From positions 32,001 to 96,000 of the IMG/VR virus record IMGVR_UViG_3300025137_000018: a DNA stretch of 64,000 bases; one strand, 5' to 3'. Below, piece by piece: positions 3,366-58,249 of this stretch. This stretch comes from a virus. Made by a program: the position numbers and the translations under genes. Numbering within the stretch: the stretch's first letter is position 1; every line of letters begins with the position of its first letter. Below the pieces are notes generated by a model. It was not told the DNA's origin. It saw only the letters and a program-made list of their open reading frames with translations, and searched no databases.

Positions 3366-3394
3366 TGTACATATGCAGTAAAGTATGGTATAAT
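3366..3394 (+). promoter_or_regulatory. Sigma70-type promoter for gp43
   Basis: TGTACA-N17-TATAAT with TG extended -10. Confidence 0.85.
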
Positions 3395-3419: not shown

Positions 3420-5933
3420 ATGAATTTTTATACTAATGTCGGCCGATATGGCAATATGCTACTCTATCGTGGTATCGAAAACGGTAATCGAGTAAGCAGA
3501 AAAGTAAAATACAAACCAACCTTGTACGTCGCTACAAGTAAACCTACAGATTGGACAGCATTGGATGGAACACCAGTTGCACCAGTCACACAATTCGAAT
3601 CTATGCGTGATGCTAAAGATTGGATTGGTTTAAACAAAGAAGTTTCAGGCAGAAAAATATACGGAAACAACCGTTATATTTCTACGTTTATAAACGAAAA
3701 GTTTCCAGGAGATATTAAATTTGATCGTAACGCAATTAACGTTACTACAATCGATATCGAAGTCGCATCAGATGACGGGTTTCCTGAACCAGATGTAGCC
3801 TCAAAAGAAGTTACTGCTATCTGTATTAAAAACAATATTGACAATACTTATTACGTGTGGGCATTAAGAGATTACGATGTAAATCAATCTATTATGCAAA
3901 CAAATCGTGTCGTGTATAAAAAATGCGATACTGAAGGTCAACTACTTCTAGACTTTATAACACATTGGTCATCACCAACACATTGCCCAGATGTTGTTAC
4001 TGGTTGGAACTCAAGATTCTTTGATATTCCATACCTTGTAAACAGAATTAATAATTTACTAGGTTCTGACTGGGTTAAAAAGTTATCACCTTGGGGATTA
4101 ATTGATTCACGTGATGTTACTATTATGGCTCGTAAGCAAACTGCATACGAAATTGCTGGTATATCTCAACTTGATTATATGGAACTATTTAAGAAGTTCG
4201 GTTACTCATACGGTGCACAAGAATCCTATTCACTTAATCATATATCACATGTTGTTCTAGGCGAGAAGAAACTTTCTTACGAAGAACACTCAAGTTTATT
4301 TAGTTTATACTTAAACGATCATCAAAAGTTTATTGATTACAATATTAAAGATGTTGAATTAGTCGATAGGATCGAAGATAAACTTGGTCTTATTACACTA
4401 GCTCTAACTATGGCTTATCGCGGTGGTGTTAACTATGGTGATACATTTGGAACTACAGCGATATGGGATTCTATTATTTACAGGGATCTTTCAACTCAGA
4501 AAATTGCAGTTCCATTTCAAGAAGATAAAGTAAAAACACCGTATCCTGGAGGATATGTTAAAGATCCACAAGTTGGAATACATGATTGGGTAGTATCATT
4601 TGATTTAAATTCACTATATCCATCGTTAATTATGCAATACAATATGTCACCAGAAACAATAGCCTCTGGTGAATTATCTGATTATGATGTTGACAGTATT
4701 CTTAAAAGCAATACAATTGTAGATAACAGAGGAAAGGCTGTAAGTGCAAATGGCCAATATTTTAATATCGATAAAAAGGGCATCTTGCCTAAAATCATTG
4801 AACAGATGTATGGAGAACGTGTTCAAATTAAAAAGGCTATGATTAAAGCACAAAAAGAATTACAGAAGGTAGATAAAAATGATAAACAAGAAGTATACAG
4901 AATTGAAAGGGATATTGCAATCAACGAAAACAGGCAAATGTCTATTAAAATTCTCCTTAATTCTCTTTATGGTGCTCTTGGCAACAAGTACTTCAGATTT
5001 TTCGATCAACGAATTGCCGAAGGAATTACACTCTCCGGACAACTTACAATACGATGGGCTGAAGAAGCTATCAATACATATCTCAATAAAGTGCTCAAAA
5101 CGAAAAAAGATTACGTCTTGGCCATCGACACCGATTCGGTGTATGTATGCTTAAACGACCTAGTTAAAGCGGTTAACCCTAGTAATCCTATTGATTTTCT
5201 AGACACAGTCTGTAGAGAAAAGCTAGAACCTGTTCTTGAAGAAGCATATAAAAAGTTATATAGTATCATGGGTGGTATCGAAAACAAAATGGTCATGGGA
5301 CGAGAAGTAATTGCTGATCGTGGTCTTTGGACAGCAAAGAAAAGATATATTCTTAATGTGCATGATAATGAAGGTGTACGATATGCAGAGCCTAAACTTA
5401 AAATTATGGGCATTGAAGCTATTAAATCTTCTACACCAGCACCATGTCGAGAAGCACTAAAAGAAATATTTAAAGTTATTATGCATTCATCTGAATCTGA
5501 TGTACAAAAATCTATTGAGCATTTCAGACAATACTTCAGAACACTAGAACCAAACAATATTGCGTTCCCTAGGGGAATAACCAATCTTACATCGTTTCAA
5601 GACAGAAACACAATTTACAAAAAAGGCACTCCAATACATGCTCGTGGCGGAATACTTTACAACAAATTAATCGATGATCTATCGCTAGGTAAGCGATATA
5701 ACAAAATCAATAATGGCGAAAAGATTAAATTCATTTATCTTAGAACGCCTAATCCTATAAAGGAAAATGTTATATCATTCCTAGATTATCTTCCAACGGA
5801 GTTTGGATTGAATAAATATATTGATCACGAAACCCAATTTCAAAAAACTTTCCTAGATCCTATCGAACCAATACTCGATGCGATTGGTTGGTCTTCAAAA
5901 GAGGTATCTACGCTAGATGAGTTTTTTGGATAA
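3420..5933 (+). CDS. 43: Family B DNA polymerase gp43
   Basis: DIEV exonuclease, SFDLNSLYPS, KILLNSLYG, DTDS motifs; C-terminal TLDEFFG clamp-binding tail. Confidence 0.98.
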   Translation: MNFYTNVGRYGNMLLYRGIENGNRVSRKVKYKPTLYVATSKPTDWTALDGTPVAPVTQFESMRDAKDWIGLNKEVSGRKIYGNNRYISTFINEKFPGDIKFDRNAINVTTIDIEVASDDGFPEPDVASKEVTAICIKNNIDNTYYVWALRDYDVNQSIMQTNRVVYKKCDTEGQLLLDFITHWSSPTHCPDVVTGWNSRFFDIPYLVNRINNLLGSDWVKKLSPWGLIDSRDVTIMARKQTAYEIAGISQLDYMELFKKFGYSYGAQESYSLNHISHVVLGEKKLSYEEHSSLFSLYLNDHQKFIDYNIKDVELVDRIEDKLGLITLALTMAYRGGVNYGDTFGTTAIWDSIIYRDLSTQKIAVPFQEDKVKTPYPGGYVKDPQVGIHDWVVSFDLNSLYPSLIMQYNMSPETIASGELSDYDVDSILKSNTIVDNRGKAVSANGQYFNIDKKGILPKIIEQMYGERVQIKKAMIKAQKELQKVDKNDKQEVYRIERDIAINENRQMSIKILLNSLYGALGNKYFRFFDQRIAEGITLSGQLTIRWAEEAINTYLNKVLKTKKDYVLAIDTDSVYVCLNDLVKAVNPSNPIDFLDTVCREKLEPVLEEAYKKLYSIMGGIENKMVMGREVIADRGLWTAKKRYILNVHDNEGVRYAEPKLKIMGIEAIKSSTPAPCREALKEIFKVIMHSSESDVQKSIEHFRQYFRTLEPNNIAFPRGITNLTSFQDRNTIYKKGTPIHARGGILYNKLIDDLSLGKRYNKINNGEKIKFIYLRTPNPIKENVISFLDYLPTEFGLNKYIDHETQFQKTFLDPIEPILDAIGWSSKEVSTLDEFFG

Positions 5934-5937
5934 ACAC

Positions 5938-5966
5938 TGTACATTTAATATAAAATATGGTATAAT
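5938..5966 (+). promoter_or_regulatory. Sigma70-type promoter
   Basis: TGTACA-N17-TATAAT, extended -10. Confidence 0.85.
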
Positions 5967-5986
5967 AGTACCAAAGGAAAATACTT

Positions 5987-6283
5987 ATGAAAGATGAATA
6001 TAAATTAGTACGACTATCTTCTGGTGAAGAAGTGGTCGGTAAAGTTACACAAAATGAAGAATCAATTACCATTACAGATGGTTATTCTTTGATTCCAGCA
6101 GGTGAAGGTAAAATTGGCTTCATGCCATTTATGGCTTATACAAAAGCAGCAGAAGGTATTACTATTCCAAATAGTTTTATTCTATTTACTGTTGATCCAA
6201 TAGATGAACTAGTAGATCAAGTTAAAGCTATGAGCAGTCCAATTCAAGTGCCAGAAAAGCAAGGAATTATTACAAATGTCTAA
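5987..6283 (+). CDS. Conserved T4-like hypothetical protein (Sm-like fold)
   Basis: KLVRLSSGEEVVG N-terminus, common in T4-like phages; RBS. Confidence 0.7.
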   Translation: MKDEYKLVRLSSGEEVVGKVTQNEESITITDGYSLIPAGEGKIGFMPFMAYTKAAEGITIPNSFILFTVDPIDELVDQVKAMSSPIQVPEKQGIITNV

Positions 6284-6677
6284 GAATTGGGTAGAAGATA
6301 TTCATTTAATGCAAAGCAAATATCTTACTAGACAATGGGTTGAAAATAATCCTGAGAAACTAAAAAAGTTTCTTGAGTTTAGAGTTGAGTTTTTAAAAGA
6401 AGAACTAATGGAAACAAAAGCTGCGGTTACTAATAATGATCCAGAAGAAATAGTAGATGGTTTAATTGATCTATGTGTTGTTGCTATTGGTACACTTGAT
6501 GCATTTGGTGTTAATCCCTATAAAGCTTGGGATGCTGTACTAGAAGCTAATATGAACAAAGAAGTAGGACAAAAGCCAACTAGGCCAAATCCACTAGGAG
6601 TTCCAGACCTAATTAAACCTGAAGGTTGGACCGCTCCATCACACGCAGAGAATCATGGTAAGTTTAACGATATTTAA
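6276..6677 (+). CDS. MazG-like nucleotide pyrophosphohydrolase
   Basis: EELME...EIVDGLIDL, ANMNK, DLIKPEGW motifs. Confidence 0.85.
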   Translation: MSKNWVEDIHLMQSKYLTRQWVENNPEKLKKFLEFRVEFLKEELMETKAAVTNNDPEEIVDGLIDLCVVAIGTLDAFGVNPYKAWDAVLEANMNKEVGQKPTRPNPLGVPDLIKPEGWTAPSHAENHGKFNDI

Positions 6678-31979: not shown

Positions 31980-34286
31980 ATGGGCATAAATGTCACTAAG
32001 AGGGACGGCACTCTCCAAAGCTTCGATTTAGAAAAAGTACATAAGGTACTCGAATGGGCCGTAGAAGATATATCAGGTGTATCTCAATCAGAGATAGAAC
32101 TAAAATCAAATATTCAATTATACGATAAAATACCCGCTTATGATATACACGAATTACTTATCAAAAGTGCATCTGAATTAATATCTGAGCATACACCAAA
32201 CTATCAATACGTAGCGGCTCGATTAATCAATTATAAATTACGAAAAGAAGTTTATGGCGAATATAAACCATGGTCTCTTGCTCATCTTATTATTGAAAAT
32301 GTCTCACGTGGGGTATACGATGGCGATATTATGAAAAGCTACACTCGCGAAGAGATAGATCAATTAGATACATATATAAAGCATGACAGAGATGATCTAT
32401 TCACGTATGCTGGAATGGAACAGTTCCGTGGTAAATACCTAGTACAAGATAGAAAAGAAAAAATCCATTATGAAACACCACAGATGCTTTACATGATGGT
32501 TGCGGCAACTCTATTTTCAAATTATGCAAAAGAAACTCGAATGAAATTTGTAAAGGATTATTATGATGCAATTTCCCAATTTTATATATCACTCCCTACT
32601 CCAATTATGGCAGGAGTGCGTACACCAACCCGTCAGTTTTCAAGCTGTGTGCTTATCGAATCTGGCGATTCTCTTGACAGCATTAACGCTACTGCCACCT
32701 CTATCGTAAAATACATTAGTAAGAAAGCAGGTATTGGTATTGGTGCTGGTTCTATTAGAGCCAATGGTGCTAAAGTCGGTGATGGTTCAGTTGTTCATAC
32801 TGGATTAATTCCATTTTTAAAATATTTTCAAGCTGCGGTAAAATCATGTTCACAAGGTGGTGTTCGTGGTGGTGCAGCAACTGTATATCTACCACTATGG
32901 CATTATGAATTTGAAGACTTAGTAGTACTTAAAAACAATAAAGGAACTGATGAAACTCGTGTACGACACATGGATTACGCGTTCCAATTAAATAAGTTAA
33001 TGTACGAAAGACTATTAACAGGTGGTAATATAACCTTCTTTGATCCTAATGATGTGCCAGGGTTGTATGAATCGTTCTTTGATGACCAAGACAAATTTAA
33101 AGAGTTATATGAAAAATACGAAAGAGCTTATTCTGTGCGTAAAAAATCTTTACCAGCACTTGAAGTATTTCAGCAGTTATTAACTGAAAGAAAAGATACT
33201 GGTAGAATTTATATAATGAATGTCGACCATGCAAATGAACATGGAGCATTTAAACCAGATAGAGCACCAATTAGAATGAGTAATCTGTGTTGTGAAATTG
33301 ATTTACCTACAAAGCCATTACAATCATACAATGACGATGAAGGGGAAATTTCACTATGTACGTTATCCGCAATTAATTGGGGTTTAATTAACCATCCTGG
33401 AGAATTTAAAAAGTACTGTGAGTTAGCAGTAAGAGGTTTAGATGAATTATTGGATTATCAGGCATATCCAATTCCAGCTGCAGAAAAATCTACAATGGCT
33501 CGTAGACCATTAGGTATTGGTATTATTAACCTAGCTTATTTCTTAGCAAAAAGAGGATTAAAATACGATGAGTCAGCATTTAAAATTGTAGATGAATACG
33601 CAGAATCTTGGTCATATTATCTTATAAGAGCTTCATCAAAATTAGCTAGAGAAAAAGGTAAAATATCTGCAATTGATGACACAAAATACGGCTCTGGAGT
33701 ACTTCCAATTGATACATATAAAGGTGCAGTAGATAATTTAATAGAGCATAAAGAACGCGTACCTTGGAAACAATTAAGAACTCACTTAAAAGAACACGGT
33801 ATTAGAAACAGCACTTTAATGGCATTAATGCCAGCTGAAACATCTGCACAAATTAGTAATAGCACTAATGGTATTGAACCACCTAGAGCACTTGTATCTT
33901 ATAAACAATCTAAGGACGGTGTATTAGCTCAGGTTGTTCCAGGATACCATCATTTAAAAAATAAATATGATTTATTGTGGGATCAAGAAGGAACTGATGG
34001 ATATCTCAAGATATGTGCTATCCTTCAAAAGTATATTGATCAGGGTATTAGTGTTAATACTTCTTACAATCCAGAAAAGTTTGAAGACAATAAAATTCCT
34101 ATGTCGTTAATGATACAGGATCTTGTTAATGCGTACAAATTTGGATTAAAACAACTCTACTATTTTAACACTCATGATGGTGCAGGAGAAATGAAAGACG
34201 ATGACCATCATACATACGATAGTGGAACAACTGAAACCCAGTCAGTAATTATTGACGATGACGATTGCGAAAGCTGTAAAATTTAA
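31980..34286 (+). CDS. nrdA: Class Ia ribonucleotide reductase alpha subunit
   Basis: ATP cone VTKRDG, SSCVL, SNLCCEI, LYY, C-terminal CESC. Confidence 0.98.
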   Translation: MGINVTKRDGTLQSFDLEKVHKVLEWAVEDISGVSQSEIELKSNIQLYDKIPAYDIHELLIKSASELISEHTPNYQYVAARLINYKLRKEVYGEYKPWSLAHLIIENVSRGVYDGDIMKSYTREEIDQLDTYIKHDRDDLFTYAGMEQFRGKYLVQDRKEKIHYETPQMLYMMVAATLFSNYAKETRMKFVKDYYDAISQFYISLPTPIMAGVRTPTRQFSSCVLIESGDSLDSINATATSIVKYISKKAGIGIGAGSIRANGAKVGDGSVVHTGLIPFLKYFQAAVKSCSQGGVRGGAATVYLPLWHYEFEDLVVLKNNKGTDETRVRHMDYAFQLNKLMYERLLTGGNITFFDPNDVPGLYESFFDDQDKFKELYEKYERAYSVRKKSLPALEVFQQLLTERKDTGRIYIMNVDHANEHGAFKPDRAPIRMSNLCCEIDLPTKPLQSYNDDEGEISLCTLSAINWGLINHPGEFKKYCELAVRGLDELLDYQAYPIPAAEKSTMARRPLGIGIINLAYFLAKRGLKYDESAFKIVDEYAESWSYYLIRASSKLAREKGKISAIDDTKYGSGVLPIDTYKGAVDNLIEHKERVPWKQLRTHLKEHGIRNSTLMALMPAETSAQISNSTNGIEPPRALVSYKQSKDGVLAQVVPGYHHLKNKYDLLWDQEGTDGYLKICAILQKYIDQGISVNTSYNPEKFEDNKIPMSLMIQDLVNAYKFGLKQLYYFNTHDGAGEMKDDDHHTYDSGTTETQSVIIDDDDCESCKI

Positions 34287-49683: not shown

Positions 49684-50148
49684 ATGTTTTTTAATAAAAA
49701 TAAAGATATTGATGTAGATCAATTAAGAGAACAATTAATAATAGACGAGGGTCAGGTAAATGAAATATATCATGATCACCTTGGCTATGCTACATTTGGC
49801 ATTGGACATTTGGTATTGGAAGGAGACCCAGAATTCGGGTTGGCGTTGGGTACTGCAGTCTCAGAGGATAGAGTTATATCATGCTTCGCCAAGGATGTAG
49901 AGACAGTCATAAGTGATTGCATAAAATTACACAACGGGTGGGATGGATATCCACAAGAAGTAAAACAAGTCATTGCGAACATGATGTTCAACATGGGACT
50001 TACGCGCTTAAGTAAATTTAAAAAGCACAATGCAGCGCTGCAGTGTGGTGATTGGCCGGTAGCGGCTATTGAAGGGAGAGATTCAAGATGGTACAAGCAA
50101 GTAACGAACAGAGCAGAAAGACTTATGGGAAGATTAGAGGCCCTTTAA
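49684..50148 (+). CDS. e: T4-type lysozyme (GH24)
   Basis: DEG...Y.DHLGYATFGIGH, NMMFNMG, SRWYKQVTNRA. Confidence 0.92.
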   Translation: MFFNKNKDIDVDQLREQLIIDEGQVNEIYHDHLGYATFGIGHLVLEGDPEFGLALGTAVSEDRVISCFAKDVETVISDCIKLHNGWDGYPQEVKQVIANMMFNMGLTRLSKFKKHNAALQCGDWPVAAIEGRDSRWYKQVTNRAERLMGRLEAL

Positions 50149-50292: not shown

Positions 50293-50544
50293 ATGGCAAG
50301 TACAATTAAACTTTTAGGATCTCAAACAGATCTTACATCAGCTACTACAGTAGGAGAAGCCACAGTTGTTAGAGTATTAGCAACTGCAGCTGGAACTATA
50401 ACGCAAAAAGCAGCAGCTGCTGGAGCTACCATAGGTACTATTCAGATGTTAGCAAATACAGAAATCGTATTGGCTAAAGCACCTGCTAATACTTTAGAAG
50501 GTGGTGCAACATTTAAAGTAGTTAAAATCGCTTACAGCAATTAA
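50293..50544 (+). CDS. Small A/T-rich beta protein
   Basis: AAGGAG RBS. Confidence 0.7.
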   Translation: MASTIKLLGSQTDLTSATTVGEATVVRVLATAAGTITQKAAAAGATIGTIQMLANTEIVLAKAPANTLEGGATFKVVKIAYSN

Positions 50545-50555
50545 GTTAATGCCGT

Positions 50556-50873
50556 ATGATAGATATAACCGAGATAGCACATGAAAAACTCGTCGAAAAG
50601 ACGCGCAAAGCTGGTAACAATATTATCAGAATTGGGCTACTTCCTGCTGGTTGCAACGGTTGGAAATACCAGTTTGTATTTGTTACTGAGAGCGATCCAG
50701 ACGACCACATAATAGATTATGGCGATTATATCTTAGTTGTTGAAACAGGCCAGCTTCATAACTTTATGAATATGACCCTTGATTATCAAACCGAGGGTCT
50801 AAATTCAGAATTTAAATTCTTAAATCCAAACGAGGTCGCGTCCTGCGGCTGTGGACAATCAATATCGTTCTAA
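50556..50873 (+). CDS. iscA: A-type Fe-S carrier IscA/HesB
   Basis: GCNGWKY, LDY, NPN..SCGCGQS. Confidence 0.92.
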   Translation: MIDITEIAHEKLVEKTRKAGNNIIRIGLLPAGCNGWKYQFVFVTESDPDDHIIDYGDYILVVETGQLHNFMNMTLDYQTEGLNSEFKFLNPNEVASCGCGQSISF

Positions 50874-50884
50874 ACAATTAATCT

Positions 50885-50892
50885 TATAAATA
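50885..50892 (+). promoter_or_regulatory. T4-type late promoter heading the csg-FecR-cyclase operon
   Basis: TATAAATA 6 nt before ATG 50899. Confidence 0.8.
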
Positions 50893-50898
50893 GATTAT

Positions 50899-51195
50899 AT
50901 GGAAGATTTGTTTACTTTAATTAGAGATGTCGGCGTGCCGATTGCAGCTGCAGTATCATGTGGTGTCTTTGTATTTATAGTAATTAAACAAATATTTAGT
51001 GGTGTATTAGATCAAATAACCACATTAACAATATTTACCAAATCTCTAGAAAATAGAGCTAGATCTATGAATAACGAAATTATTAAAATTGATTTATTAG
51101 TATCTAGTGCTTTAGAGTTAACCCCACCTATAGACCGAGTGGCTCGAGCTGAAAATTTTGCAGAGGACGGGAAAATCGATACAAGAAGAGACTAG
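50899..51195 (+). CDS. Small single-TM coiled-coil protein
   Basis: DVGVPIAAAV TM followed by LENRARSMNNEIIKID. Confidence 0.7.
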   Translation: MEDLFTLIRDVGVPIAAAVSCGVFVFIVIKQIFSGVLDQITTLTIFTKSLENRARSMNNEIIKIDLLVSSALELTPPIDRVARAENFAEDGKIDTRRD

Positions 51196-51201
51196 TAAAC
51201 T

Positions 51202-51468
51202 ATGGACATAGCTGGATTAATTATAGAATTCGGATTTGAAACAATTGCTTTAGTAGGTCTCGGATATTTTGTTTTTTATGTATGGCAATTTGTATCAAAC
51301 GACTTGGAACCAAAGATTGAAGAAATGCATTTCGGTTTAATACGTTTAATAGACCAAGTTAGAATGCTTGATCAAGATATGATTAGATTACAAGAAAAGG
51401 TTAAAGTTGTACTAGAGTATAGAGAAAGACAGAAAATATTAGATATGGAAAACAAAAATGAAGATTAG
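51202..51468 (+). CDS. Small single-TM coiled-coil protein (resembles the preceding gene)
   Basis: EFGFETIALVGLGYFVFYVW TM followed by LIDQVRMLDQDMIRLQ. Confidence 0.7.
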   Translation: MDIAGLIIEFGFETIALVGLGYFVFYVWQFVSNDLEPKIEEMHFGLIRLIDQVRMLDQDMIRLQEKVKVVLEYRERQKILDMENKNED

Positions 51469-51940
51469 AAATATAGCATTCATAGGAATGGTAATATCAT
51501 TTTCAGTATATGCTGATGAAATTAAATTTGGATTTAAAAATCCATCGTTCAGTGGATCTGGAACAGGAGCACATTATTTAACGATTGAGAACCAAGAACA
51601 TTCTCGTAAAAAGGCGATTGAAGATGCTTTAGAAGCTGCAAGAAAAGCTGCAGAAAGAGAAGCTGAAAACTCTACAATGGCCAAGTTTATTAGAAACTTG
51701 GAGAGTAGAATATACTCTCAGATGTCAAAACAATTAGTTGAATCTATGTTTAGTAACGATGGGTCAGTAAGATTTGGTTCATTTACATTAGAAGGTAATG
51801 TAGTAACATACGAAGTACTTATTAACGAAGACGGTACAGAATATATTAAAATGACCATTGTAGATTCAGATGGAACTACAACCGTTATTGAAATACCAGT
51901 AGGAACTGGCAACTTTGGGCAAGATCCAGATGTTGGTTAA
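51458..51940 (+). CDS. csgF: Curli assembly protein CsgF-like
   Basis: Signal peptide then FGFKNPSFSG; F..NLESRIYSQMS; TTTVIEIP. Confidence 0.8.
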   Translation: MKIRNIAFIGMVISFSVYADEIKFGFKNPSFSGSGTGAHYLTIENQEHSRKKAIEDALEAARKAAEREAENSTMAKFIRNLESRIYSQMSKQLVESMFSNDGSVRFGSFTLEGNVVTYEVLINEDGTEYIKMTIVDSDGTTTVIEIPVGTGNFGQDPDVG

Positions 51941-52940
51941 GTATATTTTAGTATTGTTAATGCTTAGCGGATGCGCATCAGTTCCGCAGTGGAGTCCAAA
52001 TCCTCAAGATTGTAATGACCTATCAGGAAAGTACGCTCAAGGTTGGAAAACAGATGTTGATAATGATGGTATTATAAATGATACTGCCTGGGATGTAGCT
52101 AAACAAGGATATATGGGTTATAAAAAGGCAATGGCAAGAAAGTATATTTGCGTTGATGAACCCACTGCAGTTAGATTACCTGCATATGTAGATTTATTAA
52201 ATCTACCTCCAGCAAAGGATATGCCGGTTGTTGCAGTATACGCATTTAAAGATCTAACAGGACAAAGAAAATCAGTAGATAATATAGCATCGTTCTCTAC
52301 TGCAGTTACCCAAGGCGGTACTGAATTATTAATAGATGCTCTCAAAACTGCAGGTGGCGGAACCTGGTTTAGAGTAGTAGAAAGACAAGGGATTGATAAT
52401 CTTGTAAGGGAAAGACAAATTGTAAGATCGACCCGACAAGATGTTGCTAAAGCCGAAGGGACTGAAGCACGAGGAGTTGGACCTCTCTTATTCGCTGGAA
52501 TGATTATAGAGGGAGGTATTATTGGTTATGATGCTAATACGGAAACAGGTGGACGCGGCGCACGAACACTTGGTATAGGTTTTAGTAAAATGTATCGTAA
52601 AGACGTTGTTACAGTTTCTGTGAGAGCAGTATCTGTATTAACGGGTGAAGTTTTGTTAAACGTCCAAAGTAAGAAATCGGTATTATCTTACGGAAGTGGT
52701 GGTGACTTGTTTAGATTTATTGAACAGGGAACACAACTTATAGAATATGAGGACGGTGTAGGTAATAATGAGTCAGTAACATATGCAGTTAGAGCTGCTA
52801 TTGAAGCTGCAGTTTTGGAATTAATCTACCAGGGTCATGACCGTAAATTCTGGGATATAACCGCGGGTCATCGTCATCCACATCAATTTGATGGCAAAAA
52901 CGATAAACACGCAATTAACGAGGAAAACGAAAATGAATAA
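51930..52940 (+). CDS. csgG: Curli secretion channel CsgG-like lipoprotein
   Basis: Lipobox LSGC; AVYAFKDLTGQRK, STAVTQG, VERQGIDNLVRERQI, IEGGIIGYD, TGEVL. Confidence 0.92.
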   Translation: MLVKYILVLLMLSGCASVPQWSPNPQDCNDLSGKYAQGWKTDVDNDGIINDTAWDVAKQGYMGYKKAMARKYICVDEPTAVRLPAYVDLLNLPPAKDMPVVAVYAFKDLTGQRKSVDNIASFSTAVTQGGTELLIDALKTAGGGTWFRVVERQGIDNLVRERQIVRSTRQDVAKAEGTEARGVGPLLFAGMIIEGGIIGYDANTETGGRGARTLGIGFSKMYRKDVVTVSVRAVSVLTGEVLLNVQSKKSVLSYGSGGDLFRFIEQGTQLIEYEDGVGNNESVTYAVRAAIEAAVLELIYQGHDRKFWDITAGHRHPHQFDGKNDKHAINEENENE

Positions 52941-53673
52941 ACTTTTAAGTATAGTTGTCTTAGGACTATTATCAACATCGTTTGTTTATGCTGCAGCTAC
53001 TGATGATAACGAAATTAGAATAGATCAAACTGGTGACACTTTAATCTTATATATCGATCAAGTAGGTTTTGGTAACAAAATAGGACTCACCGATTACTCT
53101 GGAAGTCCTGCAGATATGACAATAATAGGTTCAAGCTTAACATTTAATCTTGACCAGATTGGTAATCAGAATTTAATCTACGGCCCGCTGAAGCTAGACT
53201 CATCTTCTTTAACATTCAATTTAACTGGAGATTCAAATAAGGTAGATTGGGATATAGGTACAACAGGTAGTTCTGATACTACTAATTATGCCTTTGCTGT
53301 TACTGGAGATAGTAATACATTTGATATAGACCAAGGTAAAGTTGGAGCAAGTGCTGAAAGATTAGATGCTGATTTAATATTAATTGGTAACTCAAACGTA
53401 TTTGATTTAGATTTTGAAACCGATGATGTAACTTGGAATTTTGAAATTACTGGAGACAGTAATAATGTTAATACATTACAGAAAGATGGTTCACAAAAAA
53501 TAACGCTTGAATTAGTAGGTGATAGTGCAGATATTGATATTAATCAATTATCAGGTACATGTGCTGCTAGTGGCGGAGGTTGTGCAACTCCTAATGCAAT
53601 TATAAATTTAGATATTACATCAGACAATGCTAAGATTCAGATCAACCAGAAAGATTCTGGTAGCGACTCTTAG
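52933..53673 (+). CDS. Secreted curlin-like beta-repeat protein
   Basis: Signal peptide; repeats of x-I-x-(Q/T)-G-D-S-N-x-x-x-I-x-Q; C-terminal CAASGGGC. Confidence 0.75.
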   Translation: MNKLLSIVVLGLLSTSFVYAAATDDNEIRIDQTGDTLILYIDQVGFGNKIGLTDYSGSPADMTIIGSSLTFNLDQIGNQNLIYGPLKLDSSSLTFNLTGDSNKVDWDIGTTGSSDTTNYAFAVTGDSNTFDIDQGKVGASAERLDADLILIGNSNVFDLDFETDDVTWNFEITGDSNNVNTLQKDGSQKITLELVGDSADIDINQLSGTCAASGGGCATPNAIINLDITSDNAKIQINQKDSGSDS

Positions 53674-54736
53674 TTTACTATTCATCACTGGAATCGCCTA
53701 TGCTGATTCCATTGGTGACATAGTAGAGTCAACTGGCATCGGCCAGATTGTTCGTAATAATGAACAAATAGTAGTAGCTAATGCATTAGCAATAGAACTA
53801 AATGATGAAGCAAAAACTGGTAACGGAAGAATGCTTATTGAGTTTTTAGATAAGGCTCAATTATCCTTAAAGGAACATTCTGAAGTACTAATAGACGAAA
53901 TATATTATGACCCTGATCCTTCACTCTCAAAAATGAGTATGAAGTTTACAATGGGAACGGCAAGATTCGCATCTGGAAGATTAGGATTAGTGAATAAAGC
54001 CAATATTGATATCAAGACTCCTACGGCCTCAATTGCCGTACGGGGAACTGATTTTACAACAACAGTAGATGAGTTAGGTAGAAGCCTAATCATATTACTA
54101 CCAGATGAGAATGGTGACCCATCTGGTGAGATAGTAGTTTCTAATGAAGGCGGAGTAGTTACATTAAACGAAGCCTATGCCGCAACAATGGTATCATCAT
54201 TAGATTCATCACCAACACAGTCAATCGTAGTGAATGGTATTACACCAGCATTAATTGACAATATGTTTATTGTATCACCTCCACCGGCAGTTGCTGAAAG
54301 AATACAAGAAGAAATGGCCGATGAAGCGAACGAAGACCAAGGGCTATTAGATATAGATTTTTTAGAGTTCACTGAGTTAGAAGAAGATGAGTTAGAAGAA
54401 GATGAACTTGAAGATTTTACCGAACTGGATATTGATGAATTAAGTGTCGATTTTTTAGTAGATGTATTAAACGCCATAGACAATTCAGATGTTCTAAATA
54501 CAATAGGCGAATTTAATATCAAAGGTGCTAGTAAAGGATTTAATATTAAATCCCAATGGAATGTTTTTTTACAAGATGGCGATTTAGTATTGTATAGAAG
54601 CGTTAATGGTGTTATAAGTGTTAAAATAGGTGCAGCTGGTAATTTTGCATTAGAAGCTATAACTCCAACTTGGGACGGACTAATAACTGGAAACGAGGGT
54701 GATGATATCCTCATTTATATAAATCAGGTGAATTAA
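53627..54736 (+). CDS. FecR-domain periplasmic/secreted protein with acidic linker
   Basis: Signal/TM; TGNG, IKTPTASIAVRGTDF, GEIVV; D/E-rich linker. Confidence 0.85.
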   Translation: MLRFRSTRKILVATLSLLFITGIAYADSIGDIVESTGIGQIVRNNEQIVVANALAIELNDEAKTGNGRMLIEFLDKAQLSLKEHSEVLIDEIYYDPDPSLSKMSMKFTMGTARFASGRLGLVNKANIDIKTPTASIAVRGTDFTTTVDELGRSLIILLPDENGDPSGEIVVSNEGGVVTLNEAYAATMVSSLDSSPTQSIVVNGITPALIDNMFIVSPPPAVAERIQEEMADEANEDQGLLDIDFLEFTELEEDELEEDELEDFTELDIDELSVDFLVDVLNAIDNSDVLNTIGEFNIKGASKGFNIKSQWNVFLQDGDLVLYRSVNGVISVKIGAAGNFALEAITPTWDGLITGNEGDDILIYINQVN

Positions 54737-54737
54737 T

Positions 54738-55511
54738 ATGTTAGATAAATTAGAAGAATATTCAATGAAAGCTTTAATATGGGCAAGTGTTTTATTTTGG
54801 CCTATTATTATATTGTCACTACTTTTAGCACCACTGTTTGCAAATGCTGATGATAATATTATTACTATGGAACAAACAGGTGATACCTTTCAATTAGGTG
54901 TTGATCAATTTGGTTATAGTAATGAAATTAAAATGCTAGATGGTAATTCATATATTACAGCCACAAGTTTAGATATGTATTTAGTCCAGGTTAATACAAG
55001 TACTGGTGCACTTCCTAATAAAATTACATTCGATGAAATAAGTGGAACAGGTAATCAAATGAAATTAGCTCAAGGTGTTGCATGGAATACTCTTGATTCT
55101 GACACTGATTTAACTTGGTCGCATGATAGTTATGAAGGGGGCGGCCATGAAATTGATATTATTATGTACGGTGACAACAATAAATTAGCAGTTCAACAAA
55201 CGAACCAAACTGGTGCAGCCGACGGACATAACTTTGATCTACATTTAGCTGGTGATAATAATGAAGTTAAAATAAAACAACAAAGTAATGGTTCTAAGAC
55301 TATTGACCTAACAATTTACAATGATAATAACGATGTGTTTATTCGTCAATATGGTCAAGGGTCATCACACAATGCTAATATTACGTTAGATGGACTATAT
55401 AACACTGATTTAATTTTAAAACAATTAGGTACATCAGGTTCCAATGCATACACACTTAACCAAAACTGTTTTACAGTTGGTGGTTGCTCAGTGTCAGTAA
55501 CTCAGGAGTAA
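54738..55511 (+). CDS. Second curlin-like beta-repeat protein
   Basis: Signal; DNIITMEQTGD, GDNNKLAVQQ, GDNNEVKIKQQ, NDNNDVFIRQ; C-terminal CFTVGGC. Confidence 0.75.
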   Translation: MLDKLEEYSMKALIWASVLFWPIIILSLLLAPLFANADDNIITMEQTGDTFQLGVDQFGYSNEIKMLDGNSYITATSLDMYLVQVNTSTGALPNKITFDEISGTGNQMKLAQGVAWNTLDSDTDLTWSHDSYEGGGHEIDIIMYGDNNKLAVQQTNQTGAADGHNFDLHLAGDNNEVKIKQQSNGSKTIDLTIYNDNNDVFIRQYGQGSSHNANITLDGLYNTDLILKQLGTSGSNAYTLNQNCFTVGGCSVSVTQE

Positions 55512-55513
55512 TT

Positions 55514-55999
55514 ATGGCATATTCAGACGAAGTAGTAAAGAGATTTGAAGCGGTTCTAGCCAACCCTAAAAAACATTCTGTTGGCTCATTAGATAGAAAG
55601 GATCCAAAAGTAGCAACCGGTCTTGCAGGAGCTCCTGCATGTGGTGACGTAATGCAATTACAGCTATTACTCGATGATGATGAAAAGATTATCGATGTTA
55701 AATTTAAAACATATGGTTGTGGGTCAGCAATTGCATCTTCATCATTGTTTGTTGATATGATGATGGGTCTAACTATCGAAGAAGCAAAACTAATTAAAGA
55801 TAAGGACATTGCAGAGGTCTTACAACTTCCACCAATTAAATTACATTGTAGCGTATTAGCAGAAGATGCTATTAAACAAGCTATGGTAGATTACGAAACA
55901 AAAAACGACAAAGACTACACACATCCAATTTTAGACCAACCTAAATCTATGATAGGTCATAATAGACCACCACTCGAAAGAGAGGACTTCATAGAATGA
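55514..55999 (+). CDS. iscU: Fe-S scaffold IscU
   Basis: MAYSDEV, GAPACGDVM, FKTYGCGSAIASSS, LPPIKLHCSVLAEDAI; AGGAG RBS. Confidence 0.95.
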   Translation: MAYSDEVVKRFEAVLANPKKHSVGSLDRKDPKVATGLAGAPACGDVMQLQLLLDDDEKIIDVKFKTYGCGSAIASSSLFVDMMMGLTIEEAKLIKDKDIAEVLQLPPIKLHCSVLAEDAIKQAMVDYETKNDKDYTHPILDQPKSMIGHNRPPLEREDFIE

Positions 56000-56082
56000 T
56001 AAAAAATTATTATAGATTTATAAGAATGAAGTACGGATACAGACTTGCATCTAAAGGAATTTTAGTGGATATATACGTATGA
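55996..56082 (+). CDS. Possible 28-aa peptide
   Basis: GAGGA RBS; ATGA overlaps on both sides. Confidence 0.4.
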   Translation: MIKNYYRFIRMKYGYRLASKGILVDIYV

Positions 56083-56354
56083 CAATAGAATGCCCAGAAG
56101 AATATTATGAGTGTCTTACCGAAGAAGAATATGATGAAATATTAGAACTCTTCGAAGAGAATGAAATATCATTTCCAGATTCAATTCAACCAGAAAGCGT
56201 AAGCGATGCACAAGCAGTAGCTGATTTTACGTGGCAAGTGCTATTCTTATCTCCATGGGAATTAGCTTATATAGCTTTACCAATGAGCGTATTAGCCTTT
56301 TATGGATTAACTATATACGCTATTTTTAAATGGGTCCAGAGAAAATTTAGCTAA
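56079..56354 (+). CDS. Small membrane protein with acidic N-terminus
   Basis: CPEEYYEC acidic segment then TM; TAATG-coupled to the cyclase. Confidence 0.65.
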   Translation: MTIECPEEYYECLTEEEYDEILELFEENEISFPDSIQPESVSDAQAVADFTWQVLFLSPWELAYIALPMSVLAFYGLTIYAIFKWVQRKFS

Positions 56355-58192
56355 TGAAACTAATAACCAGTATTTGGACAACCATAATACTGTCACTTAT
56401 TCTTATAGGTATAAGAATAATTGATCCTAGCTTTGTTCAGCAGTTAAGATTAAACACTTTTGATCAATATATTTCTACCATTCCAGAAAAGAAATCAGAT
56501 ATAGTTCTACTGAATATAGGAGAAGAATCCTTAGGTTTATTAGGACAATATCCATTCCCTCGTCAAACTTACGCACAATTAATATCTGATTTAAGGAATG
56601 CTAATGCAGGATTAATTGGATTTACTTTAATGTTTCCAGAGGCTGATAGATTCGGTGGAGACGAAGTGTTTGCTTCTTGGGTAAATGATAATGGTATTAT
56701 CTTATCTCAGGATGCAGATGAAAATGGAAGAAGTACTAAAGCACCCTATGTTGGTTCAGTAACATTTGGTACAGGTGATCCATTAGATTGGGCTATAAGA
56801 TATAAAGGATTAGTTACAAATATAACTGAAATAGAACAAGGTGCATGGGGTACTGGATTAATAAATGGCATGCCAGAAGTCGATGGATTAGTGCGTAGAA
56901 TACCTTTGTTAAGTCAAATTAATAAGGAACTATACCCATCGTTTGCACTAGAACTTCTTAGAGTATCTAATGAACGATTATCTTATACTGTAAAAGTTAA
57001 TGATGTAGGTATAGAAGAAATAATTATTAGGCCATTTAGAATTACTACAGATCCTAATGGATCATTCTGGATTAACCATAATTATACCTTTACGGAAATA
57101 GAGGTCGGGACCAAGCTACCTGATCTTCAGGGCCAAACAGTTCTAATTGGACTGACAGCGAAGGGATTAGCGGCCCAGATTCCAACTCCTGCTGGTCTTC
57201 AATCAGCTCATCATATTCAGGCTGCGTCCATCCAGTCAATAATGGATGAAATATCGATATCTCGTCCTCTCTGGGCGGATTTAATTGAAATCCTGGTAAT
57301 GCTAATTGCCTCGGGACTCTTAATCTATATTGTGTATTACCGTTCGATTCGTTCATCAGCCATAATCTTCGTTGGGATTGCGATCTCGACCGGAGCTTCT
57401 GTTGCATACGTCTGGAATGAATGGGGAATTCTCCTTGATATTAGTTACTTTTCACTATTATATATAATAGTATTCTCATCAGCAAGTTTTAATAATTTTT
57501 ATAAACAATATATGTTAAGGCAACAGATAAAGAAACAGTTTGAGACCTATTTAGATCCTAAACAAGTATACCTATTACAGAAAAATCCAGGTTTATTAAA
57601 GCTTGGTGGAGAGCGAAAACAGATGTCGTTTCTTTTTATGGATATTGTAGGCTTTACTCCTATATCAGAACACTATAAGAACAATGATGATCCAGAAGGA
57701 TTAGTAGAATTAATTAATGAATTTCTTAATGCAATGACAAATATTATTCTTGCAAATGGTGGTACTATTGACAAATATATGGGGGACTGTATAATGGCAT
57801 TTTGGAATGCTCCATTACCCTGTGAAAATCACGCTGAAATGGCAGTTAAATCAGCGATAGAAATAGAGACTAAAACAAATGAACTTAAAGAGTTATATTC
57901 TGCCAGGGGTTTGCCTGACATTAATGTTGGTACTGGCGTTAACACCGGTGATTGTATTGTTGGTAACATGGGTAGTGAATCCAGATTTGACTACTCGGTT
58001 ATTGGAGATGCAGTCAATCTTGCCGCGAGGCTTGAGGCTACCGCTGCAAGGCATGAATATATAGAATATAAAACCATCATTTCTGAGGATACTTACAGCA
58101 GGTTACCCTCTAGCCTAAAATGCACAAAAATTGGCCAAATAACTGTAAAAGGTAAAAAAGACCTTATAACCATATATTCTCCTTCGTTATAA
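56354..58192 (+). CDS. CHASE2-sensor class III adenylate cyclase
   Basis: N-terminal TM, CHASE2 (GQYPFPR, DGLVRRIPL), 3 TM, FMDIVGFT, DKYMGDCIMA, GDAVNLAARLE, VKGK. Confidence 0.93.
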   Translation: MKLITSIWTTIILSLILIGIRIIDPSFVQQLRLNTFDQYISTIPEKKSDIVLLNIGEESLGLLGQYPFPRQTYAQLISDLRNANAGLIGFTLMFPEADRFGGDEVFASWVNDNGIILSQDADENGRSTKAPYVGSVTFGTGDPLDWAIRYKGLVTNITEIEQGAWGTGLINGMPEVDGLVRRIPLLSQINKELYPSFALELLRVSNERLSYTVKVNDVGIEEIIIRPFRITTDPNGSFWINHNYTFTEIEVGTKLPDLQGQTVLIGLTAKGLAAQIPTPAGLQSAHHIQAASIQSIMDEISISRPLWADLIEILVMLIASGLLIYIVYYRSIRSSAIIFVGIAISTGASVAYVWNEWGILLDISYFSLLYIIVFSSASFNNFYKQYMLRQQIKKQFETYLDPKQVYLLQKNPGLLKLGGERKQMSFLFMDIVGFTPISEHYKNNDDPEGLVELINEFLNAMTNIILANGGTIDKYMGDCIMAFWNAPLPCENHAEMAVKSAIEIETKTNELKELYSARGLPDINVGTGVNTGDCIVGNMGSESRFDYSVIGDAVNLAARLEATAARHEYIEYKTIISEDTYSRLPSSLKCTKIGQITVKGKKDLITIYSPSL

Positions 58193-58220: not shown

Positions 58221-58249
58221 TGTACATTTGGATCCAGCCATGATAGAAT
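58221..58249 (+). promoter_or_regulatory. Sigma70-type promoter
   Basis: TGTACA-N17-TAGAAT with TG. Confidence 0.75.

Follow-up and report, generated by a model that had tools for sequence, protein, structure and literature searches.

The window analysed here, a stretch of 64,000 nucleotides (positions 32,001 to 96,000 of the IMG/VR virus record IMGVR_UViG_3300025137_000018), contains a cassette of ten tightly packed plus-strand open reading frames (ORFs) at 50899-58192 that is the type VIII, or curli-like, secretion system (T8SS) module already in print for marine T4-like myophages of the SAR11/OM43 type. To that known cluster the window adds one further member, with an IscU insert. The reading with the best support is that the cassette is an operon, captured or shared, that combines machinery for curli-like export with an old periplasmic sensor pair, an exported FecR-domain protein and a CHASE2 adenylate cyclase, with cyclic AMP (cAMP) as output. 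As a whole, this reading (a known phage T8SS module, a core operon common to a few Caulobacterales, and a FecR/CHASE2 pair that couples it to cAMP) seems to us somewhat more probable than improbable. The window has a G+C content of about 34%, carries nearly all of its genes on the plus strand, and is part of a 126-kb record that is about 70% complete by CheckV estimate, a figure that applies to every search of the record reported below. The genes that we find conserved in this module are the following.

50899-51195, plus strand: tm1, a 98-residue bitopic membrane protein with an N-terminal transmembrane (TM) segment at residues 11-29 and a coiled coil (phrog_18771, 2.7e-21)

51202-51468, plus strand: tm2, an 88-residue paralogue of tm1, with which it can be aligned (phrog_18771, 2e-22)

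51458-51940, plus strand: CsgF homologue with a signal peptide (Pfam CsgF, 3.7e-15, profile positions 8-132 of 132; phrog_35372, 2.3e-35)

51915-52940, plus strand: CsgG outer-membrane channel lipoprotein (Pfam CsgG, 5.8e-51; lipobox Cys20, read from the translation)

52933-53673, plus strand: curlin-like subunit A, a predicted exported beta-solenoid, its start set by homologues

53627-54736, plus strand: exported FecR-domain protein (Pfam FecR, 5.6e-8) composed of a signal peptide, a FecR beta domain, an acidic linker and a C-terminal beta domain

54738-55511, plus strand: curlin-like subunit B, predicted to be exported, 27% identical to subunit A in an alignment (Pfam Curlin_rpt, 18.4 bits)

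56354-58192, plus strand: receptor-type class III adenylate cyclase (Pfam CHASE2, 1.2e-37; Guanylate_cyc, 5.1e-21)

With the IscU gene and a third small membrane protein gene, tm3, the order of the cassette is tm1, tm2, CsgF, CsgG, curlin-like A, FecR-domain protein, curlin-like B, IscU, tm3 and CHASE2/class III cyclase, as the original prediction had it. The gaps between successive genes are 6, -11, -26, -8, -47, 1, 2, 79 and -1 nt, where negative values are overlaps and the homologue-supported starts of curlin A (52933) and IscU (55514) are used.

The cluster has a published history. A curli cluster was reported in pelagimyophages in 2020, with 'sibling capture' as its proposed use (PMC7029224), and in 2022 CsgGF was put forward as a lysis timer (PMC9004378). 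Also in 2022, the module of SAR11 podophages and myophages was described as one or two 'histidine kinases', CsgF, CsgG, CsgA/B, FecR, a second CsgA/B and an adenylate cyclase; the same report calls FecR, cyclase and kinase putative regulators, documents the module through co-occurrence across 65 ocean stations, phylogenies and metatranscriptome matches, and infers an alphaproteobacterial origin (PMC9599517). The original prediction had stated that no description of the cluster as a signalling system was known. That statement was wrong, because PMC9599517 describes the same module, with FecR and cyclase as conserved and putatively regulatory members. In the literature on pelagiphage curli or on CHASE2 with FecR, we found no later work on mechanism beyond PMC7029224, PMC9004378 and PMC9599517. 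What the present analysis adds is the occurrence of the operon on bacterial chromosomes, the generality of the FecR-CHASE2 pairing, the lack of support for the kinase label, the missing cAMP reader and a C-terminal motif shared by three of the exported proteins; the supplement of PMC9599517 (Figures S3-S5, Data Set S1) may bear on how new these are.

Annotations of the same cassette, in the same gene order, exist for Pelagibacter phage HTVC008M and for Methylophilales phage Melnitz; those of Melnitz name a 'curlin associated repeat protein' as well as a 'FecR domain protein'. Identities to HTVC008M and Melnitz, respectively, are 46% and 39% for CsgG, 37% and 33% for the FecR-domain protein, and 45% and 35% for the cyclase. 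The T8SS module of pelagimyophages and HTVC023P-type podophages therefore has the core genes of the window in the same order, while the window differs from HTVC008M and Melnitz in having IscU and a small tail-anchored protein before the cyclase and a CsgG that is about 70 residues longer N-terminally.

To see how constant this arrangement is, IMG/VR was scanned with a CsgG alignment (co-occurrence check INDEPENDENTLY), and the best 80 of at least 583 loci were kept, a sample with 64-86% CsgG identity that is biased to close relatives. A lack of FecR and cyclase genes beside csgFG in other genomes had been named beforehand as a result that would refute the prediction. Both were found wherever there was room for them: a FecR gene follows csgG in 58/58 viral loci with at least 2.9 kb available, and the cyclase is present in 31/31 with at least 6.5 kb, over a range of 32-97% identity. 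The pair tm1 and tm2 precedes csgF in 77 of the 78 loci with room. From these locus counts, the conserved unit is tm1, tm2, csgF, csgG, curlin A, FecR, curlin B and cyclase, and IscU, tm3 and lysozyme fall outside it. In podophage versions the cyclase is sometimes missing, according to PMC9599517, and it is to that extent dispensable there. The FecR-domain protein and the cyclase are each matched by thousands of 90%-identity protein clusters, and at least 583 IMG/VR contigs carry the module, which makes it a very common one in surface ocean waters.

The export machinery itself is recognisable from sequence and fold. CsgG residues 86-316 match the solved E. coli CsgG at 7.8e-44; CsgF, set directly against the solved CsgF, gives a weak match (E 0.31) over its N-terminal 51 residues. 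These comparisons, with the Pfam matches, identify CsgG as a predicted lipoprotein channel of the outer membrane and CsgF as its partner. Signal-peptide-like N-termini are found in CsgF, both curlins and the FecR-domain protein. Shared with the E. coli curli system (CsgBAC-CsgDEFG) are the CsgG lipoprotein channel, CsgF and the beta-solenoid subunits with curlin repeats. The phage operon differs from that system in containing a FecR-domain protein and a cyclase, and the constriction loop of its CsgG is altered, two of the three residues that form the E. coli constriction being replaced in the alignment. CsgE, the periplasmic gate or chaperone, was not found in the 126-kb record, about 70% complete, which has no PF10627 match; CsgC and CsgD were not searched for. 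According to PMC9599517, CsgC, CsgD and CsgE are not present in viral modules, and CsgE is also not present in alphaproteobacterial modules. Between the lipobox and the conserved core, the CsgG of the window carries an extra segment of about 70 residues (residues ~25-95) with two Cys that, from alignments, is not present in the CsgG of HTVC008M, Melnitz or E. coli.

The two subunits to be exported were harder to place. Taken singly, the curlin-like sequences score 18.3 and 18.4 bits, under the Pfam cut-off of 20.7 bits. A profile of 26 curlin sequences, run against 177,635 solved-structure sequences at E <= 1, matched only the E. coli CsgA 8enq (3.4e-5) and the Pontibacter CsgA 8c50 (0.028). 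The AlphaFold2 model of curlin A is a beta-solenoid (predicted local distance difference test, pLDDT, 79), and in the wide VIA search it reaches Z 16.1 to Pontibacter CsgA 8c50, level with generic beta-helices, and Z 10.4 to E. coli CsgA 8enq; Foldseek with the same model against the PDB returned nothing at E <= 0.001. By sequence and fold, the cassette encodes two Sec-exported, curlin-like beta-solenoid subunits.

The FecR-domain protein is the first member of the putative sensor pair. Its AlphaFold2 model (pLDDT 81.6) has a confident beta domain at residues ~30-205, a disordered acidic stretch at ~213-273 and a confident small beta domain at 294-366. Model residues 57-216 superpose on the cell-surface signalling domain of PupR (6ovk_R) with Z 15.3 over 137 aligned residues at a root-mean-square deviation of 2.7, and the FecR domain matches a Parabacteroides anti-sigma factor (4m0n) with Z 14.5. 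By sequence and modelled fold, then, this protein is Sec-exported and is folded in its N-terminal half like the signalling domain that FecR/PupR regulators have in the periplasm. That fold is what it has in common with the FecR/PupR anti-sigma regulators; it differs from them in being soluble and exported, in having a different C-terminal half and in lacking an anti-sigma domain and a TM anchor. A FecR-type anti-sigma regulator is ruled out, since a signal peptide replaces the cytoplasmic anti-sigma domain and TM anchor and the FecR domain begins at about residue 30; searches of Pfam matches and ORFs also showed no extracytoplasmic function (ECF) sigma factor or TonB-dependent transducer next to the FecR gene in the cassette. 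The fold lists barely cover the C-terminal domain of the model. Residues 26-121 resemble a 'cell surface anchoring domain' (5ix9) with Z 6.9 over 73 aligned residues, which is below kinship level and a lead only.

What the C-terminal end of the protein does share with the curlins is a short motif. Members of the FecR family end in hydrophobic-x-hydrophobic-x-Q, within the last 14 residues, in 37 of 40 cases, and both curlins end in the same way, with the Q invariant in 26/26 sequences. Among the 118 plus-strand ORFs of the window only four have such an end, three of which are curlin A, curlin B and the FecR-domain protein. Curlin homology of the FecR C-terminal domain was rejected (hhalign probability 2.3%), the short end motif alone being held in common. 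As a motif in these sequences the shared end is real, and it could be a common signal for export or docking.

The second member of the pair, the cyclase, is laid out as a first TM segment, a periplasmic CHASE2 domain of about 280 residues (~29-309), three further TM segments and a cytoplasmic catalytic domain, with the predicted TM segments at residues 4-28, 310-328, 335-353 and 359-377. The catalytic domain is nearest to that of P. aeruginosa CyaB (3r5g, 1.9e-34), and in an alignment with CyaB residues D430, K474, D478, D546, N555 and R559 are all present; they are conserved in 25, 24, 25, 20, 24 and 25 of 25 relatives, respectively. We take these, from the class III literature, to be the metal-binding Asp pair (D430/D478), the adenine pair (K474/D546) and the transition-state pair (N555/R559). 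Sequence and fold accordingly describe a predicted inner-membrane cyclase with a periplasmic CHASE2 domain and the full ATP-type set of catalytic residues. Relatives of the cyclase domain alone occur in two records of Acinetobacter phage MD-2021a (35.8% identity over the catalytic domain), and three further PHROGs also match this domain, so that phage class III cyclases are not confined to the curli module.

Beyond phages, the core of the module can be found as a bacterial operon. One genome per species was scanned with a FecR alignment, the best 80 of 394 relatives were kept and their ORFs were searched with the window proteins; the loci were thus picked by FecR motifs alone, and 77 of them had a FecR ORF. 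Five core genes (csgF, csgG, curlin or curlins, FecR and CHASE2 cyclase) form an operon in two Caulobacteraceae metagenome-assembled genomes (MAGs; L088 and L089) and in a Henriciella MAG (L095, on a 396-kb contig). For L088 and L095, the two covered by the flank check, the flanks carry ordinary chromosomal genes, with Pfam matches to TonB-dependent receptors, a fumarylacetoacetate-hydrolase-family protein, methylmalonyl-CoA mutase, acyl-CoA dehydrogenase and similar proteins. The genes tm1 and tm2 were not found in the bacterial operons, a search with the hidden Markov model of the family included, and are phage-specific additions. Seven other loci labelled as MAGs (L084, L085, L086, L091, L092, L093 and L099) do have tm1/tm2 and the phage form of the cassette; the two that were checked, L093 and L099, show strong phage-family matches, with DNA ligase, clamp loader and endolysin in L093, and the seven look like mis-binned phage contigs. 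Their MAG labels are Rhodobacterales, Maricaulis, Pelagibacter, Flavobacteriaceae, Luteolibacter and Bacteroidetes. Directly before csgF in L088 stands a calcineurin-like phosphoesterase (5785-6645; Metallophos, 8.3e-17); CpdA-type cAMP phosphodiesterases belong to the Metallophos superfamily.

The pairing of FecR with CHASE2 extends further than the operon. A CHASE2 ORF lies within 1.5 kb of the FecR gene in 34 of the 77 loci, of which 9 have csgG and 25 have no CsgG match (two of the 25 being cut at the upstream end). Judged by these gene neighbourhoods, the association is general and reaches well beyond phages. Published precedents exist. In a Burkholderia biofilm-regulating operon an exported LysM-FecR protein adjoins a CHASE2 histidine kinase, and P. 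aeruginosa has a reduced form of this operon (PMC5192318). S. meliloti has clr, then cyaD1, which encodes a CHASE2 cyclase, then the FecR-domain gene smc02177 and smc02178, and its FecR-domain mutant has the phenotype of the cyclase and Clr mutants (PMC5498481); signal perception there requires the outer-membrane barrel NsrA (PMC13001267). Like the phage, the Burkholderia 'BiofilmReg' and S. meliloti smc02177-cyaD1 pairs put the gene for an exported FecR protein beside that for a membrane protein whose CHASE2 domain is periplasmic, and as far as those reports go, the outputs concern biofilm or surface behaviour. The Burkholderia and S. meliloti pairs differ from the phage in having no CsgFG or curlins and in FecR proteins that are shorter or carry LysM, many without the acidic linker and C-terminal domain. 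The claim that FecR and CHASE2 form one sensory unit is on these grounds a reasonable one.

Twenty-five cyclases, picked by hand from the matches, were placed in a maximum-likelihood tree (midpoint root for drawing only). It separates 14 T8SS-linked sequences (10 from phages, 4 from bacterial MAGs) from 11 bacterial sequences found in the pair only, with a split of 100/100, and by this split the T8SS-linked cyclases share one origin. Phage and bacterial rows are intermixed in the T8SS-linked group. Among 101 genomes sampled from the order of the Henriciella MAG, a search with its FecR protein (one query, E <= 1e-10) found a single carrier, which was the MAG itself. The operon seems rare among the bacteria sampled, and the direction of transfer is for that reason not settled by these data.

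The timing of expression was read from promoter motifs, of which two delimit the cassette.

50885-50892, plus strand: T4-type late promoter box TATAAATA, intergenic, 6 nt upstream of the ATG that opens the cassette (50899)

58221-58249, plus strand: early-type promoter motif after the cyclase stop, one of 13 copies, which opens the next transcription unit

The box of the late promoter noted before the cassette is present, is intergenic and has a recurrent spacing to the ATG, but the motif is not over-represented. The window holds 17 copies of TATAAATA, against 15.0 +/- 3.7 in shuffles, so as a statistical signal the box was rejected and its position alone supports it. Fifteen copies are on the plus strand, five of them intergenic although the window is about 98% ORF-covered, and at three sites (28757, 43677 and 50885) the box stands 6-7 nt before an ORF start. 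T4 late transcription starts a few bases after the box. If the same holds here, the three late mRNAs from these sites would be nearly leaderless. The other motif, the better founded of the two, consists of TGTACA, 12-13 nt and an extended -10 box (ATGGTATAAT in most copies), and its 13 copies (at 3366, 5938, 8846, 14506, 17912, 31909, 36559, 38605, 41710, 58221, 58732, 59242 and 60988) are all on the plus strand, all intergenic and each 35-71 nt before an ORF, with none on the minus strand; it is probably the early/middle promoter class of this phage. No copy lies inside the cassette, and the one at 58221 comes right after the cyclase stop, where an early promoter had been predicted. With the box upstream and the early motif found only past the last stop, the cassette looks, from its motifs, like one late unit, and the position of the box suggests late expression.

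One study's seawater metatranscriptomes contributed contigs (Logan) from four runs that are at least 99% identical to the window and extend across csgG and curlin A into the beginning of the FecR gene. Such contigs document that the sequence is present in RNA libraries and are no record of transcription, its starts or its strand, with DNA carry-over possible, and stretches that they leave uncovered (for example 57850-58183) carry no meaning; they are consistent with transcription of the cassette. A 3-nt deletion at 50409 and a group of substitutions at 50403-50431 are common to the four runs and fall in a small gene (50293-50544) before the IscA-like gene. The remainder of the covered stretch is nearly identical, which marks 50362-50431 as a local hot spot of microdiversity, and the hot spot coincides with an inverted repeat flagged on the minus strand by a terminator scan.

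Each of tm1 and tm2 has one N-terminal TM segment followed by a helical, coiled-coil-like remainder, and the C-terminus of tm1 is charged and strongly conserved. A basic residue after the TM segment in most homologues suggests, by the positive-inside rule, that the helical part is cytoplasmic. Neither has a Pfam family at E <= 0.1, their profile matches only coiled-coil proteins among PDB sequences (best E 0.043), and in the ESM Atlas they fall into virus-only clusters, one of them auto-named 'MotA/TolQ/ExbB', from which no function was found. The 'histidine kinase' label of PMC9599517 is unsupported for proteins of 98 and 88 residues with coiled-coil-only PDB matches and no Pfam family, HisKA/H-box and HATPase_c included. 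The two remaining genes of the cassette are as follows.

55514-55999, plus strand: IscU/NifU_N iron-sulfur (Fe-S) scaffold (Pfam NifU_N, 2.1e-38), with a homologue-supported start in the ORF 55484-55999

56079-56354, plus strand: tm3, a 91-residue protein that is acidic N-terminally and has a TM segment towards its C-terminus, at 62-83 (weak PHROG match, 0.0054)

The original prediction counted IscU as part of the system. Just 7/48 viral loci have it between curlin B and the cyclase, where HTVC008M and Melnitz lack it, and tm3 is found between csgG and the cyclase in 16/48; both are variable inserts, or passengers. Just before the cassette is a gene for an IscA/HesB-like protein (50556-50873), with a C-terminal Cys-Gly-Cys-Gly motif read from its translation. 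The phage thus carries two genes for Fe-S cluster assembly, IscA-like and IscU (55514-55999), the positions of which differ among relatives.

We suggest that the FecR-domain protein and the CHASE2 domain act jointly as a periplasmic sensor pair, because many bacteria have the same pair of genes, with a cyclase or a kinase as its output and no curli genes alongside. In the phage such a pair would couple the state of curlin export and assembly, or of the envelope, to cAMP synthesis, and the coupling may run via the long acidic linker of the FecR-domain protein and the end motif that it has in common with both curlins. Contact between the two partners, the sensing of curlin export, fibre state or surface contact, and a control of lysis or superinfection by cAMP are steps that we infer. 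A predicted complex of CHASE2 residues 23-312 with FecR-domain residues 27-230 scored 0.00 in two runs without controls, which speaks neither for nor against binding.

Several observations weigh against this reading. Neither a cyclic nucleotide monophosphate (cNMP)-binding domain nor a GAF domain turned up in the 126-kb phage record, about 70% complete, and among 41 genomes of the SAR11-labelled family (40 sampled ones and the Pelagibacter-labelled MAG itself, many of them incomplete) a cNMP-binding domain occurs in two, so that the proposed sensor would have an output without a known reader. With the FecR query used here, 43 of the 77 loci have no adjacent CHASE2 gene. In S. meliloti, smc02177 is a target of the cAMP regulator and dispensable for perception of the plant signal, according to PMC5498481, and by those genetics the FecR-domain protein may work downstream of the cyclase instead of upstream. 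The C-terminal domain of the FecR-domain protein has no profile homology to the curlins, as the hhalign result above shows, and the end motif that they share is short. Late timing is drawn from a consensus box only. Fibre formation has not been seen, and the authors of the Melnitz report describe no clumping in cultures (PMC9004378). The phage record has one Metallophos match (G000:C1:24259-24834), which by its size may be a T4 gp47-type nuclease and not a phosphodiesterase.

A more elaborate form of the coupling, which we regard as improbable, would have the FecR-domain protein span the outer membrane. Outside the cell, the C-terminal domain, with the end motif found in both curlins, would bind the curlin fibre or CsgF. 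The disordered acidic linker, about 60-80 residues long, would pass through the channel of CsgG, and the FecR domain would sit on CHASE2 in the periplasm, so that pulling, contact or failure of the fibre would switch cAMP synthesis. In a host without cAMP signalling of its own, a phage effector, possibly the tm1/tm2 pair, would then read the cAMP and set lysis timing or superinfection behaviour.

Of the explanations that dispense with a sensor, the one we find least improbable, unlikely as it is, takes the module to make adhesive fibres only, on infected cells, which would serve either aggregation ('sibling capture') or protection from superinfection, with FecR and cyclase as inherited baggage that has no sensory role. 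Hypotheses of this kind are given in PMC7029224 and PMC9599517, the curlin-like subunits and CsgFG are bona fide, and a cAMP reader is unrecognisable in the phage record and in most SAR11-family genomes. Baggage would, however, be expected to decay in streamlined phage genomes, whereas the cyclase is kept in every locus with room, across the whole identity range, with its catalytic residues intact; the Melnitz cultures without clumping also argue against it. We consider it likewise unlikely that CsgG and CsgF form an ungated outer-membrane pore, similar to a pinholin or a secretin, that times or executes lysis, to which the curlins and the sensor pair would be accessory. This idea was proposed for Melnitz (PMC9004378), and it agrees with the late promoter box, with the CsgE gate not found in the phage record and with a T4-lysozyme-like gene at 49684-50148, which lies about 0.75 kb upstream of the cassette, close to the 0.7 kb first given. 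The lysozyme linkage itself did not hold up, since such a gene is found within 3.5 kb upstream in just 12/61 related viral loci. Two curlin-like subunits, unrecognised in PMC9004378, are conserved with the channel, and the same operon occurs in non-phage chromosomal contexts. Nor, from what is established about holin action, would an outer-membrane pore alone depolarise the inner membrane.

Two further proposals give the cAMP or the FecR domain a more familiar task. Phage-made cAMP could take over catabolite-type regulation of the host via a regulator of the CRP/Clr type, an outcome that the original prediction allowed for and that we hold to be very improbable. The CHASE2 cyclases of S. meliloti signal via the CRP-family regulator Clr (PMC5498481 and PMC13001267), and operon-bearing MAGs have cNMP-binding matches, 7 in a Caulobacteraceae MAG and 4 in the Henriciella MAG. 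For SAR11-type hosts, the clade that the module carrier HTVC008M infects, the proposal is unlikely: cNMP-binding domains and class III cyclases each occur in only 2/41 of the SAR11-labelled family genomes, and the phage record has no cNMP-binding domain of its own. Late expression would also leave host transcription little time to matter. A role in iron sensing, in which the FecR-domain protein would work as FecR does in ferric-citrate regulation and link the module, with its neighbours IscU and IscA, to the uptake of iron, we find scarcely credible. In its favour are the Pfam FecR match, the iron link raised in PMC9599517 and the IscA-like and IscU genes that flank or interrupt the cassette of the window. 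Against it, the protein has a signal peptide where FecR has its anti-sigma domain and TM segment, the adjacent phage genes include neither an ECF sigma factor nor a TonB-dependent transducer, IscU occupies this position in few of the loci, and in bacteria the CHASE2 partners of FecR-domain proteins differ in output.

Both the cluster and its proposed regulation by FecR and cyclase are in print already, and the biology that they represent is ecologically widespread. If the FecR/CHASE2 pair does couple the export machine to cAMP, a phage with both an outer-membrane secretion machine and a cAMP-producing receptor would be an unusual import of a whole signalling pathway, because the likely host clade is mostly without cyclases and cAMP receptors. 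The chromosomal operon, the general pairing of FecR with CHASE2, the absence of a recognisable cAMP reader and the shared end motif make the question more testable, and the chromosomal operon would offer a bacterial version for study if a cultivable carrier can be found.

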